Source: Gemmatimonas sp.
Lineage (GTDB): Bacteria > Gemmatimonadota > Gemmatimonadetes > Gemmatimonadales > Gemmatimonadaceae
Strand: one strand, 5' to 3'
NCBI RefSeq assembly: GCF_051059595.1
Contig: NZ_CP050872.1
DNA: 64,000 nt
Shown: piece by piece, positions 28,548 through 46,325 of the stretch
How the letters are laid out: each line of letters opens with the position of its first letter
Position numbering within the stretch: the stretch's first letter is position 1
The notes under the pieces: model-generated
Database searches by the model: none
Told to the model about the DNA's origin: nothing
What the model saw: the letters and a program-made list of their open reading frames with translations, nothing else
Program-made: the position numbers and the translations under genes

Positions 28548-28832
28548 CGTGGTCGTGGTCTGGGCAAAACTGTCGGGGCTGACCCCGACCCATCCCCCGA
28601 CAGTGTGACCCCGACCCCGACCCCGACCCCGACCCCGACCCCGACCCCGACCCCGACCGCCGAGCAAAGCAAGGCCCCAAGACCGCCCCACCGACTGCCG
28701 TGAGACCCCGACCCGGCCTTGACCCCGACCGCCGGTAGACCCCGACCGTAGTGGCAGTACCCCGACTGTCGTGGCAGTACCCCGACCGTAGTGGCCGTGC
28801 CCCGACCATACCCACGACCCCGACCACGACCC
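28548..28832. repeat. Composite palindromic intergenic repeat, copy 1 (left arm largely lost)
   Basis: GTCGGGG-CTGA-CCCCGAC hairpin; (GACCCC)8 at 28607-28654; three 20-bp CCCCGAC modules; about 165 bp nearly identical to 35231-35396. Confidence 0.9.
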
Positions 28833-28873
28833 GCGAGAGACATGTCCGCAATGCGCACAGGGCAATAGTTCAC

Positions 28874-29599
28874 ATGCATTCACCAGACGAACGCATTCTG
28901 CGGACCTGGCACGCGAACGTGGCCCCGTGGACGGACGCCGTCCGTCGCGGGGAAATTGCCAGCCGGGTGGCGGTGACGAACGCCGCGATCCTGGGGGCCA
29001 TCCGCTCGCACGCCCCGCGTCGCATCCTTGACCTGGGCTGTGGCGAGGGGTGGATCTGTCACGAGGTCGCGCGCGATGGGATCGCAGCGGTCGGCGTAGA
29101 TGCCATCCCCGGCCTCATCGACGCCGCTCGTGCCGGTCATTCGGTGGACGGGGTACCGGGCACCTACGCCGTGCATACCTACGAGGCGATTGCCGCCGGG
29201 GCATTGATCGCCGAGGGCTATGGTACCTTCGATCTGATCGTCTGCAATTTCGCGCTGTTCGGGAACGAGTCCGTGGGCGCTTTGCTGAAGGCGCTTCCCG
29301 CGTCATTGGGACACGGGGGGCGGCTGATCATCCAGACATTGCACCCGGTCAGCGCGCGTGGCGATCTGCCCTACGAAGACGGGTGGCGCGAGGGCAGTTG
29401 GGCGGGGTTCAGTGACGCGTTCACCGACCCGGCGCCGTGGTATTTCCGCACCATCGGGAGCTGGGTCGCTCTGTTGCGCGCCAGCGGCTTCGCACTCGAG
29501 GCGCTTCACGAACCGTGTCATCCTGACACCGGCGCACCAAGTTCGCTGTTGCTGACGTTGCGCGCTGACCCGGTTGCCGGCGTGGTTCGCACGGTTTAA
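28874..29599 (+). CDS. Class I SAM-dependent methyltransferase
   Basis: ILDLGCGEG, GVDA, FDLIVCNF. Confidence 0.88.
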   Translation: MHSPDERILRTWHANVAPWTDAVRRGEIASRVAVTNAAILGAIRSHAPRRILDLGCGEGWICHEVARDGIAAVGVDAIPGLIDAARAGHSVDGVPGTYAVHTYEAIAAGALIAEGYGTFDLIVCNFALFGNESVGALLKALPASLGHGGRLIIQTLHPVSARGDLPYEDGWREGSWAGFSDAFTDPAPWYFRTIGSWVALLRASGFALEALHEPCHPDTGAPSSLLLTLRADPVAGVVRTV

Positions 29600-29703
29600 T
29601 GCTGCGGCATATTGCCGAGGCGATTGTGCCTCGCTACCGTGCCATATTGACTCGTTCAGCAGTTCCCTCCCAACGAGTGACTCCCTCCTATCAGAGCGCA
29701 GGC

Positions 29704-32700
29704 ATGTTCATCCGATCGATGCTGAGCAGTATGCTGATACGCGGTTCAGCAACTGCTCTTTCCCTCACAGTCGCGGGTAGCGCGGTGTCGGCGCAGGCCG
29801 TCGCGTCTACCGGTACCGTGCGCGGCAAGGTGACCGACGCGGGCACCGGCCAGCCGCTCGCCGACGCGCAGATCTTGGTGGCCAACACGCGTGTCGGGGC
29901 GCTGACCAATGCCCGGGGTGAATACGTGCTGACGGCCGCGCCAGCAGGGGCCCGCACGATCACCGTGCGGCGTCTCGGGTACCTGCCCTTGTCGCGCTCC
30001 ATCACGATCACCGAGGGCGGCACGGCCACCCTCGATGTGTCGTTGACCATCAGCGCGATGAACCTTGGCGAAATCGTGGTGACGGGTTCTGCCGCACCGA
30101 CGGAGAAGCGAAAGGTCGGCACGAGCATCGCGTCGCTCGACAGCACGGTCATCAGCCGCGCACAATCGGTGACGGTCGATCAGGCGCTGCAGGGCAAGAT
30201 TGCCGGCGCGCAGATCTCGCAGAACTCCGGCGGCCCGGGCGGTGGTGGCATCTCCGTCCGCCTGCGCGGCACCAACTCGTTCATCTCCGGCTCCGACCCG
30301 CTGTACATCATTGACGGCGTGATCGTCGACAACGGCTCCGGGCAGCTGGCCGACCTCGGCGGTCGCTCCAACCCGCAGAATCGTCTGGCCGACATCAATC
30401 CCCAGGACATCGATCGCATCGAAATCATTCGTGGTGCGGCCGCCGCGGCGCTGTACGGCTCGCGCGCCAACAACGGCGTGGTGCAGATCTTCACGAAGCG
30501 CGGCAGCATTGGCAAGCCGCGCTTCGCGCTCACGACCCGCTACGGCACGAATGAGCTGCGCGAGAAGCAGCCGTTCAACCTGTATCCGTTCGACGTGAAT
30601 GGGTTGCCGACGCCTCGCTTCGACTATCAGGACGACATTTTCCGGCGCTCGCCGAGCACGGAGCAGAATCTGACGGTTGAAGGTGGCAACGATCAGACCC
30701 GCTACTTCATCAGCGGCAACTTCGCGGACGATCAGGGGATCATGCGCTCGACGAGCTCGCAGCGCACCGGGGCCCGCATCAATCTGCAGCAGCAGCTCGC
30801 GAGTAACCTGGTGGCCAACGTCACCTCGAACTTCGTGACGACGAACAATCAGTTTCAGGCGTTCGGCGAGCAGAACGATTACGGCATCATGGGGTCGCTC
30901 TTCTTCTCGCCCACCAACGTCGACTTCCGTCCGGTCAACGGCGTCTATCCGCTGCCGCCATCGCTGGGCACCAATCCGTTGCTCGCGATCGATCGCATTC
31001 GCAATCCGCAAACGATCAACCGGTTCATCGGCAGCACCAAGTTCACCTGGACGCCGCGCGCCAACCTGTTGCTCGACTACACGCTGGGCATCGACAACTC
31101 GGCCTTCGAGCAGCGCCAGTTCGTGCCGCGTAGTGCCGTCCTCGGCACGGCGCCCTTGGCCACCGGCCGCTCGCAGTCGGTGTTTCAGGATTCGCGCGTC
31201 ATCAATCAGGACGGCGTCGGCTCGTACTCGTGGCGCCTGAACGATGCGTTCGGAATGCGCACGACGGCGGGCTTCAATTACACGTCGCAGCGCCTTCGTA
31301 CCACGAGTGCCACCGCCAACGGCCTTGCGCCGGTGGGTGAACTGGTGAGCGCGGGCTCCATCTTCGCCGCTGGTCAGTCGGATGTGGAGCTGCGCACGCT
31401 GGGCTTCTACGCGCAGCAGGAAATCGACTGGTCGAATAAGCTCTTCTTCACGGGCGCCGTGCGCTACGACGCGTCGAGCACGTTCGCGCCCACCGAGCGC
31501 TGGCAGGCGTTCCCCAAGCTGTCGCTGTCGTACGTGGCGTTGGAGAACCGGACGGGGCTCATCAACAACCTGCGGTTGCGCACCGCGTTGGGCTGGGCGG
31601 GTTCGCAGCCGGGTATCGTGAATGCGTATTCGCAGTACATCACGTATTCGCAGCTGCCGTTTGCCGGCCGCCCGGGCTTCGTGAACGACGTGACGTTCGG
31701 TAACCCGTCGTTGCGCAATGAGCGCGCCCGGGAAGCCGAAGTGGGCGCCGAGGCTGGGTTCCTGAACGGCAAGGTGGCGGTCGAGGCGACGTATTACGAT
31801 CGGCAGGTCAACGACCTCCTGTTCTTCCGGCCGCTGGCGACGAGCACAGGCTTCTCGCGACAGTTCGCGCCGATCGGTTCGATGAGCAACAAGGGAGTCG
31901 AACTGTTGGTGCGCACCACGAACGTGAACCGGCGGAACCTCAAGTGGGAGTCCACGGTCACGTACACGCGGAACCGTAACCTCGTCGAGAGCCTGAATAT
32001 TCAGGACTTCCAGTCGGCGGGTGGCTACCCCAACCGCATCCGCGTCGGCGAACCGGCCGGCGTGTTCTACGGATCGTATGCCGCGCGTGATTGCCGCACG
32101 GGGGCGTTGCTGGTGGACTCGTTGGGGCGCTATCGCCGCAGCAATCAGGCGGCCGATATGGGCACGGCAGCGCAGCGTCAGGCGATTAGCGGCGGCAGCT
32201 GCAACGATTCGCTCAACGCGGTCATCGGTGATCCGAATCCGGATTGGATGGGATCGTTGCTCAACGAGTTCACCATCGGGCGCAACTTGCGTGTGCGAGT
32301 GCTGCTCGATGGCGTGTTCGGCAACGACGTGATGAACCTGTCGACGCGTGCGCAGAATGCCGGTATTGCGAGCAACTCGCGCTCGTTCGAACGGGAGCTG
32401 TTGCCCTATGGTGATCCGCGCAAGACGGCCCCCGGCTTCAACGCCCGCACGCAAGGCATTTTCGAGTATTGGGTGGAGGACGGCAGTTTCGTGAAGCTCC
32501 GCGAACTGTCAGCGACCTACTCGGTCGATTGGAAGCCGCTGCGTAGGGTGTTCAAGGAAGGCGTCGATCTGACGCTGTCGGGACGCAATCTCGCAGTGTG
32601 GACCAAGTACAGCGGCTACGACCCCGAGATCAACCTGTTCGGCACGAACGCCGGTGGTGTGGGCAGCGGCCAGACGACGGCCGCCGATCGCGGCTTCGAC

Positions 32701-45294: not shown

Positions 45295-45390
45295 GCCATT
45301 CGTCGGAGTCGCCATCGTGCGACCGGCACTCCGCCGGTCGCGCGGTGGCGCGCCGCGTCGTGCCCCACCCCGAGCGCGTATTTTCCGGGT

Positions 45391-45921
45391 ATGACTGCCG
45401 ACCAAATCGATCCCAGCTACCCCATTGGCCGCTTCGCCCGCCGTGATGCCTATTCGGCCGCCGAACGCGCCGCACACATTGCCCGTATCGGCGCCCAGCC
45501 CAGCCGCCTCACCGCCGTGCTCGACGGTCTGGAGGAGCACGACTTCGACGCGCCCTACCGCGCCGGCGGATGGACTGTGCGCCAGCTCGTGCACCACATG
45601 GCCGACAGCCATATGAACGCGTTCCTCCGCGTCAAACTGGGGCTCACCGAAGACCACCCCACGATCAAGCCCTACGATCAGGACGCTTGGGCAACGCTGG
45701 CGGACACGACCCTTTCGCCCCACGTCTCGGTCGCCCTCTTCGCTGCCACGCACATCCGGCTGCACAGCGTACTGCAGTCGATGACGGCCGAGCAGTTCTC
45801 GCGCACCATCATGCACCCCGAGAACGGCGCCATGTCACTCGACCAAGTCGCCGCCATGTACGCGTGGCATGGGGACCACCATCTCGCGCAGCTGGAGCGC
45901 TTCCTCTTGGTCTATCGCTAG
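45391..45921 (+). CDS. yfiT: YfiT/DinB family putative metal-dependent thiol transferase
   Basis: YPIGRF, YRAGGWTVRQLVHHMADSH, YAWHGDHH. Confidence 0.88.
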   Translation: MTADQIDPSYPIGRFARRDAYSAAERAAHIARIGAQPSRLTAVLDGLEEHDFDAPYRAGGWTVRQLVHHMADSHMNAFLRVKLGLTEDHPTIKPYDQDAWATLADTTLSPHVSVALFAATHIRLHSVLQSMTAEQFSRTIMHPENGAMSLDQVAAMYAWHGDHHLAQLERFLLVYR

Positions 45922-45935
45922 GGCTCTGCGCTCTT

Positions 45936-46325
45936 GGGTCGGGGTCGGGGTCGGGGTGGCGGGTGGGGGTCTGGGTACTGCCACCTACAGTCGGGGCACA
46001 GCCACGACGGTCGGGGCACAGCCACCACAGTCGGGGTCTACAAACGGCCGGGGTCCCGGTCGGGTCGCGCGCTACGCTGCGCTCGCGCGTCGGGGCTAAA
46101 CTGTCGCGGTCTTGGTCGGGGCAGCCCCGACATTTTGTCCCCGACCCCGACCCCGACCCCGACCCCGACCCCGACGCGCGAGCGCAGCGCAGCGCGCGAC
46201 CCGACCGGGACCCCGACTGTGTTGAGACCCCGACTGTCGTAGCAGTGCCCCGACCGTGGTGGCTGTGCCCCGACGGTAGTGGCAGTACCCAGACCCCCAC
46301 CCGCCACCCCGACCCCGACCACGCC
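45936..46325. repeat. Composite palindromic intergenic repeat, copy 3 (long inverted repeat between convergent genes)
   Basis: Inverted arms 45943-46095 and 46169-46320 (about 150 bp, few mismatches); central GTCGGGG-CAG-CCCCGAC hairpin; (GACCCC)5 at 46143-46172. Confidence 0.93.

Follow-up and report, generated by a model that had tools for sequence, protein, structure and literature searches.

What kind of element recurs between the genes of a 64,000-nt stretch of a Gemmatimonas sp. contig (NZ_CP050872.1, assembly GCF_051059595.1; here called the window) is the question raised by three large palindromes within it. An initial annotation likened them to paired repetitive extragenic palindromic sequences (REPs and REPINs), which are mobilized by REP-associated tyrosine transposases (RAYTs), and to miniature inverted-repeat transposable elements (MITEs). 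Our comparisons tip the balance, with slightly better than even confidence, toward a different identity: the copies would be open reading frame (ORF)-less members of an old, vertically inherited family of hairpins resembling rRNA intervening sequences (IVSs), and their 20-nt repeat units are predicted recognition sites.

The window (66% G+C) encodes SusC/SusD-like, GMC oxidoreductase and DinB-family proteins, and its DNA is matched in lake and freshwater metagenomes. The heptamer GTCGGGG occurs 92 times on its two strands, against 18.7 ± 4.4 expected, and 69 of the 92 occurrences fall in three intervals: 28548 to 28832 (copy 1), 34941 to 35406 (copy 2) and 45936 to 46325 (copy 3). A 27-nt double-unit pattern, CCCCGACYGTNGTRGCWGTRCCCCGAC, has 14 matches with ≤2 mismatches, where none are expected, and they are confined to the same intervals. 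Each copy is intergenic: copy 1 occupies the gap between a stop codon at 28547 and the start of a methyltransferase gene, copy 2 between a stop at 34932 and the ATG (35407) of an AMP-binding enzyme gene, which it abuts, and copy 3 between the convergent stops, at 45921 and 46329, of DinB-family and beta-propeller genes. The window has no Rfam match at gathering thresholds and no rRNA match. Motif counts, tandem-repeat and inverted-arm analyses and gene positions thus bear out the description of three large, composite, intergenic palindromes.

Scanned against one genome per species for 185,579 species, the 27-nt pattern was found at 74 loci, all in Gemmatimonas or Gemmatimonadaceae assemblies (the 74 include one assembly labelled "bacterium", ~93% identical to the window). 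A metagenome collection supplied 75 further loci, from freshwater metagenomes, and the viral contigs scanned held no copy. Core clustering of the 150 fetched loci resolved ~180 elements, in which a G-rich arm always precedes a C-rich arm. This count contradicts the possibility, allowed for in the initial annotation, that only the three window copies exist, and it supports the proposal of a dispersed, lineage-specific, multicopy intergenic family that is larger and more modular than REPs. The long contigs of VYMF01 carry 22 elements in ~1.06 Mb, a lower bound of ~1 per 48 kb, and we therefore estimate roughly 100 or more elements per genome; in a related isolate, arm depth is ~19 times single-copy depth. 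The repeat family is real and private to one clade. A search of the available literature found no description of these Gemmatimonas repeats or of dispersed ORF-less derivatives of cassettes such as those described below.

To the idea that the elements are artefacts of assembling or sequencing GC-rich repeats we give practically no credence. Many short-read contigs do stop inside elements, with assemblies breaking at the arms, and one locus (L051) has an implausible poly-G run, but the same elements with the same flanks recur in assemblies made independently, some on contigs as long as 226 kb. The elements themselves account for the breaking of Gemmatimonas metagenome assemblies at these sites.

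A consensus built from 104 arms, read from the outside in, begins with a ragged terminal module (GGTCTTG GTCGGGG TTGCGGGTGGTA), continues with three 20-nt units and a 17-nt unit (GTCGGGGTCTACAAACA) and ends with GTCGGGGTCCCGGTCGGGTC, a GC box (GGGCGCGGCGCTKCGCTGGCGCG) and hexamer runs. In a full element, the two inverted arms enclose an apex, in which a GC hairpin stands between an A-tract and a T-tract, together with hexamer arrays that vary in length. When complete, the apex is symmetric (ATAAACT-GTCGGGG-CWG-CCCCGAC-AGTTTAT) and resembles a bidirectional intrinsic terminator; in many copies one side only is kept, and orthologues differ as to which side survives. The RNA of copy 3 and that of copy 2 are each predicted to fold into one long hairpin (−378.8 kcal/mol, z = −23, and −380.6 kcal/mol, z = −16, respectively), and long (GGGGTC)n runs fit a G-quadruplex motif, as judged from sequence only. 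Elements begin 8 to 65 nt past stop codons and may abut start codons; the 44 with both flanks resolved separate 21 tandem, 16 convergent and 7 divergent gene pairs. A terminator role with the apex oriented by gene direction was considered and rejected, as no consistent match was found and the complete apex is itself symmetric.

The most distinctive property of the family is the conservation pattern of the 20-nt unit. Position weights from 353 pooled units give GTCGGGG-Y-AC-W-GC-Y-AC-N-AC-R, with variation confined to positions 8, 11, 14, 17 and 20, and the five variable positions are identical for each of the three units in an arm. When 106 orthologous units were compared between genomes of ~93% identity, these five positions differed in 18 to 39% of cases, position 4 in 9% and the rest in 0 to 2%. 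An anchor-based count, which is not conditioned on the unit and is less biased, gave ~1.4% for conserved and ~32% for free positions. In neighboring genes, divergence is 2.5% at first, 1.4% at second and 14.6% at third codon positions; the conserved unit positions are therefore constrained about as strongly as second codon positions, and the free positions are at least neutral. Solo arms have the same pattern (changes at 4 of 25 free versus 0 of 75 conserved positions). Strong purifying selection acts in place on 15 of the 20 positions of the unit, largely regardless of the opposite arm.

A coding origin of this every-third-base pattern was rejected on three counts: the repeat has a 20-nt period, variation falls at the same five positions in every unit of an arm, and TAG stands in the next frame in about one-third of C-strand units. 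The pattern is a caution for annotators, as two constrained bases followed by a free one mimic coding sequence in DNA that is noncoding. Maintenance of the hairpin as the main selected feature was likewise rejected. Arm-to-arm identity is the same within elements as between them (0.843 versus 0.835), covariation at free sites is weak (8.9 versus 8.04 of 15, from pairs that are not independent), and solo arms keep the pattern. Resemblances of the unit to Chi, sigma-54, DnaA-box and DnaA-trio sequences, judged by eye only, were too weak to retain.

The pattern might also arise if the elements were functionless relics homogenized by concerted evolution, through ectopic gene conversion among hundreds of units, instead of being held by selection. 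This is improbable. The free positions do outpace third codon positions, as expected if donors differ there, and changes per unit are slightly overdispersed (p = 0.057). Their distribution is nevertheless close to binomial, with no multisite tracts, which favors point substitutions filtered by selection over conversion tracts. Furthermore, the GC box and terminal modules, which are equally multicopy, diverge by 6 to 30%, and the every-third-base pattern is kept in distant lineages in which the unit sequence itself is different. Read most simply, the pattern would imply a trans-acting reader that contacts the dinucleotides of the unit in a 3-nt register.

A candidate for such a reader is encoded within one member of the family. 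At locus L133, a G-arm and a C-arm lie ~780 bp apart and enclose a 125-codon ORF, homologues of which stand between or beside arms at L073, L106, L051 and L142. All five genes belong to PF05635 (E values of 1e-27 to 1e-31), the "23S rRNA intervening-sequence protein" (S23p) family, and to TIGR02436, "four helix bundle protein". Among solved structures, the closest is Xanthomonas 2GSC, whose entry contains five chains; the proteins of this family form pentamers, and PF05635 includes Avd of diversity-generating retroelements (DGRs; cd16375). PF05635 proteins are very common in bacterial genomes. Apart from the role of Avd in DGRs, we know of no function for the family since rRNA IVSs were described in the early 1990s, and no sequence-specific binding or catalytic activity of S23p or Avd proteins is known to us.

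The gene-bearing copy is conserved in position. At L151 to L160 the S23p-like gene occupies the same place across the lineages, flanked by MetRS and by PSP1 or a substitute gene, and all sampled Gemmatimonadaceae retain the arrangement; its product is 82% to 55% identical to that of L073, and arms flank it on both sides in each case. The arms at the MetRS locus align module for module with the ORF-less window copies. In the most distant genomes they are 196 to 210 nt long and 72 to 91% complementary, and their unit reads ACTGCnACnGCrGTy plus a G-run, with the 3-nt register retained. The pN/pS ratio of the gene is ~0.15 at a pS of ~0.65, and the gene is therefore under purifying selection. In a close relative of the window organism it is present once, on a contig of 516 nt that repeats probably cut short. 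In the JACVCD genome it is inverted with respect to the MetRS/PSP1 flanks (L160, 4001 to 4375, versus L151, 10001 to 10357), a state that recombination between the inverted arms would produce.

Several minor features accompany this locus. In Gemmatimonas sp. UBA7669 (L158, 4350 to 4740) the C-arm is tandemly duplicated, and each of the two right arms is ~90% complementary to the single left arm. Lineage-specific microsatellites, namely (GACCAC)n, (GCGACCGAGACA)4, (GACCAA)14 and a GC box repeated four times, stand beside the gene (L133, 1780 to 1900; L152, 10360 to 10440; L106, reverse strand, upstream) and resemble the variable heptamers upstream of Coxiella S23p. The poly-G run of L051 is ~100 nt of almost only G between the left arm and the gene, and is probably an assembly artefact of the hexamer array. 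Two genes past the locus, a DNA polymerase III alpha gene (L151, 12734 to 17314) carries a LAGLIDADG intein according to precomputed Pfam assignments. Some elements elsewhere finish in AACTGCGGT or in three tandem copies of GACTGCGGTG (L068, 5709 to 5768, and the ends in L011, L041, L031 and L015); these ends resemble the unit core ACTGCGGT of the distant L158 and L160 arms and may be a relic of an older unit.

The arrangement of a PF05635 ORF in the loop of an inverted-repeat stem is that of the 23S rRNA IVSs of Leptospira, Coxiella and Brucella (PMC4990558). The Coxiella IVS has a 28-bp stem and a variable number of tandem GACAGAT heptamers upstream of S23p and is excised by RNase III (PMC4990558). 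Variable-copy short tandem repeats beside the ORF and vertical inheritance are further points in common. The Gemmatimonas elements differ in their position between protein-coding genes instead of in rRNA helix 45, in arms that are 150- to 210-nt arrays of 20-nt units, and in the ORF-less copies (the estimated 100 or so, or more, per genome) that are dispersed over the chromosome. A PF05635 ORF within long-stem inverted repeats is present in the MetRS-locus copy, the window copies lack the ORF, and no copy is inserted in a 23S rRNA helix. Four PF05635 genes outside this family, 38 to 40% identical, occupy three unrelated contexts, beside a PHP-domain gene, at dprA-topA (two lineages) and beside proC, and inverted arrays of a tandemly repeated heptamer (GAGCCAT, GAGCTTC or AGTCGAT) lie on either side of each.

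The favored interpretation runs as a series of conditional steps. The elements would be cotranscribed with neighboring genes, and their RNA, or unwound DNA, would pair into an imperfect duplex of 150 to 200 bp with a terminator-like apex. By analogy with S23p-bearing rRNA IVSs, the duplex may be processed, or may separate genes as a barrier or terminator. The 20-nt units would be recognition sites of a trans-acting factor, for which the S23p-like pentamer from the single gene-bearing copy is the best candidate. Copies then erode as internal segments or arms are deleted and hexamer arrays slip. The window copies may then be viewed as ORF-less relatives of the S23p cassette, acting as transcribed hairpin, terminator or processing modules.

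A bolder version of this interpretation, possible but doubtful, makes the pentamer a dedicated reader of the units in a REPIN-like but RAYT-free partnership, in which it would maintain, process or once have mobilized the ORF-less elements, the last perhaps together with a host reverse transcriptase or replication hairpin chemistry. Each unit has five conserved dinucleotides, one free base apart, which would match five protomers. It was suggested earlier that the ORF of IVSs may serve mobility of the element (PMC4990558). Avd of DGRs is a pentameric nucleic-acid-binding cofactor of the same family (PF05635/cd16375); the resemblance does not extend to the neighborhood, as no reverse transcriptase gene is listed among the called genes 4 to 10 kb from the S23p-like gene (precomputed Pfam lists, L151 to L160; template/variable repeat pairs were not looked for). 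If the partnership exists, a long-orphan family of 23S IVS proteins would gain a function and a defined nucleic acid target, and a second kind of domesticated repeat-plus-gene partnership would stand alongside REPIN-RAYT. One conserved gene-bearing element, set against an estimated hundred or more ORF-less copies with units under measurable, position-specific selection, provides a concrete predicted ligand and a testable genetic system.

Several considerations weigh against the IVS-like interpretation. Binding, processing and termination by the elements are predictions, and the RNA support is thin, consisting of a few low-depth metatranscriptome contigs that extend from genes into arms and may include DNA. 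The role given to the pentamer draws on colocation and coconservation, in a family that has no known sequence-specific binding, and the S23p gene may have entered one element early, as a passenger. The homologues were seeded from the MetRS locus alone, so other PF05635 paralogues without arms are possible, and any ORF-less copies in UBA7669 and JACVCD lie outside the coverage of the scan. Frequent gene conversion over very short tracts could mimic purifying selection. Finally, the comparisons of orthologous sites were ascertained through motif-containing loci.

The passenger view leads to the alternative that the elements are host regulatory modules only, i.e., bidirectional terminators, mRNA-stabilizing hairpins or arrays for nucleoid proteins, read by some host factor, and that the S23p gene is incidental. 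Placement just past stop codons, the many convergent gene pairs, the terminator-like apex, the very stable fold and the purifying selection on units would all suit such modules. We nevertheless regard this alternative as unlikely. The S23p gene and its arms stay together at one locus across lineages in which the units have diverged, and chance association is difficult to sustain because unrelated PF05635 genes also sit between inverted short-repeat arrays (PMC4990558). In addition, the orientation of the apex is independent of the direction of neighboring genes, and the apex side that survives differs between orthologues.

Whether a transposase spread the ORF-less copies bears directly on the initial annotation, which had noted that none is present in the window; this is correct for the 19 window genes scanned with Pfam. 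Six-frame translations were searched for RAYTs with phmmer --max, using E. coli RayT, and with the HUH...Y..NP motif, and no RAYT or IS200-like protein was found in 1.13 Mb, including the flanks of the ~180 elements. Paralogue clustering in the first 74 loci detected no multicopy protein family recurring across contexts and returned only GMC oxidoreductase paralogues and pseudo-ORFs of element sequence, and arm maps placed no gene other than PF05635 between arms. As far as seen, no transposase is involved in the spread of ORF-less copies.

Elements of REPIN or bacterial interspersed mosaic element (BIME) type, moved in trans by a RAYT (HUH Y1) transposase, are therefore very improbable. The population structure of the Gemmatimonas elements, with many nonautonomous, palindromic intergenic copies that persist for long periods at fixed loci and a single-copy, vertically inherited partner gene flanked by the same repeats, is that of the REPIN-RAYT systems of Pseudomonas and the REP/BIME sequences of E. 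coli, and intergenic inverted-pair hairpins that persist vertically are indeed numerous in Gemmatimonas. In these genomes, however, the repeat-flanked gene is PF05635 and no RAYT was found in the 1.13 Mb. The 20-nt unit lacks both a conserved GTAG-type head and the hairpin form of a REP; it folds at only −0.7 to −2.1 kcal/mol, and two of its three variants fold no better than shuffled sequences. The elements are also mosaic and three to four times longer (300 to 450 bp, not ~100 bp). The RAYT-mobilized interpretation consequently fails, while that of a nonautonomous element survives in part: most copies are gene-less and one conserved copy bears a gene, which follows the logic of a nonautonomous family with a single-copy partner gene, but the partner is not an HUH transposase.

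The orthologous sites point to an old family. Two relatives of ~93% identity carry an element at each of the three orthologous sites, and a more distant one, of 78% identity, carries one at the copy 1 site. Spans agree in almost all of 172 flank-pair comparisons, a test biased by the use of the motif to retrieve the loci. Relatives of ~93% identity showed no insertion polymorphism, and a direct scan of metagenomes for an empty copy 2 site found none. At 73% identity (L118), the copy 3 site is empty, and the DinB-family and beta-propeller genes are ~7 nt apart (CCCCGAT). The empty-site comparison proposed in the initial annotation thus yielded one empty site in a distant relative and no polymorphism among close ones, and the condition of fixed orthologous loci, which it named as counting against its reading, holds for the two ~93% relatives but not for copy 3 in L118. 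The empty site itself (L118, 12196 to 12203) reads TGA-CCCCGAT-CA and contains a single core CCCCGA, reflecting perhaps a preferred target or perhaps what is left of a deleted element. GMC oxidoreductase loci from three other genomes (L161 to L163), considered as empty sites, proved paralogous instead of orthologous and hence uninformative.

Nonorthologous copies are only ~70 to 77% identical while orthologues are fixed, which argues against a recent burst. Elements have also been altered where they stand, in part by decay. The copy 1 left arm is lost in the window and one relative and retained in another relative; at L108, only the outer ~40 nt of each arm remain; and hexamer arrays vary in length between the window and its orthologues (17 versus 0 to 3 repeats in copy 2; 6 versus 2 in copy 3). 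Taken together, the sites show an old family in which copies have been gained or lost between species, without sign of recent movement.

Classical MITEs, as deletion derivatives of a DDE insertion sequence or a Tn7/Mu/IS21-like element whose transposase is encoded elsewhere and binds the 20-bp repeats, would explain inverted arms with three or four direct 20-bp sites, as at the ends of Tn7, Mu and IS21, as well as the one empty site in a distant relative. This origin is nonetheless quite improbable. The best direct repeats at element ends are distributed as in a shuffled-pair null, so target-site duplications do not exceed chance, and the ends are not sharp but ragged, with hexamer-like runs. 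The first 74 loci hold no multicopy protein family, only PF05635 lies between arms in the arm maps, and a recent burst is lacking; in-place purifying selection on every unit would be unexpected in dead MITEs. The REPIN/RAYT and classical MITE interpretations both fail their defining tests, because there is no transposase signal in the DNA searched, no target-site duplication beyond chance and no sharp terminus, and the units are mostly unfolded. MITEs such as Correia/NEMIS do resemble the Gemmatimonas elements in size range, inverted ends, intergenic position, cotranscription and possible RNase III or terminator effects, but the Gemmatimonas elements have no related insertion sequence, and their copies are old and diverged, yet constrained. 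BOX elements of Streptococcus pneumoniae and RIME/BIME sequences are likewise modular, intergenic and strongly structured by prediction, with variable internal tandem subunits and no known cognate transposase. Their sequences are unrelated, and the conserved gene-bearing copy and the 3-nt-register pattern set the Gemmatimonas family apart.

The three window copies represent different states of this common plan. Tandem Repeats Finder reported the 20-nt unit ~3.5 times per arm and hexamer arrays of 9, 17 and 6 copies. Copy 1 is a half element comprising a vestigial left end, apex hairpin, (GACCCC)9 array, type-B inner module (a second inner module present in copies 1 and 2), three 20-nt units and right terminal module. 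Its left arm is reduced to GTCGTGGTCTGGG and a single GTCGGGG, and copy 1 is a deletion derivative, because its orthologue in another species retains the whole left arm (L025 shares the truncation; L050 plus L018, and L033, keep the full arm). The apex (28567 to 28589) consists of the A-tract AAAACT and the hairpin GTCGGGG-CTGA-CCCCGAC and is followed by (GACCCC)9.3 at 28607 to 28663 and by the C-arm (28740 to 28806), with three units of the form CCCCGAC-Y-GT-N-GT-R-GC-W-GT-R that differ from their orthologues at every-third positions only.

Copy 2 is a full palindrome, with 103-nt arms that are 86% complementary. In order, it contains a G-arm (34962 to 35045; three 20-nt units and the 17-nt unit GTCGGGGTCTACCAACA), a GC box, (GTCGGG)17 (35082 to 35184; a G-quadruplex-type motif on the plus strand, missing from both orthologues), an apex hairpin (35178 to 35195; GTCGGGG-CTGA-CCCCGAC), a type-B inner module and a C-arm (35316 to 35382; three 20-nt units). 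Copy 1 aligns with its right half at 90.8% identity over 218 columns; the identity of about 90% given in the initial annotation therefore stands, whereas the shared length exceeds the 165 bp claimed. The G-rich left part that had been ascribed to each copy is present in copies 2 and 3, but in copy 1 as the vestige only, and the central hairpin GTCGGGG-(CTGA or CAG)-CCCCGAC was found in all three. Copy 3 is also a full palindrome, with arms of 111 nt and 45 nt that are 90 to 98% complementary. Its G-arm (45969 to 46046) has 20-nt units and a 17-nt unit, its apex (46115 to 46138, plus strand) reads GTCGGGG-CAG-CCCCGAC followed by ATTTTGT and resembles an intrinsic terminator, and a (CCCCGA)6 array (46139 to 46175) precedes a C-arm of three 20-nt units (46228 to 46294).

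Other features of the window adjoin or separate the copies. Copies 1 and 2, of one subfamily and in the same orientation, bracket a 6-kb block (28843 to 34932) that encodes a methyltransferase, a SusC-like TonB receptor, a SusD-like protein and a DUF4397 protein. Adjoining copy 3, a 117-bp tandem repeat (2.5 copies, 75% matches; 46451 to 46738) lies inside the beta-propeller-like ORF at 46329 to 48080 on the minus strand. Between copies 2 and 3, a low-GC (0.55) insertion of ~2.2 kb (38198 to 40339), absent from the orthologous loci L053 and L014, encodes an AAA_21/AAA_15 ATPase and a DUF4276 protein, and these genes match the PADLOC candidate defense system HEC-01 (HEC-01A, E value of 7e-75; HEC-01B, E value of 2e-28).

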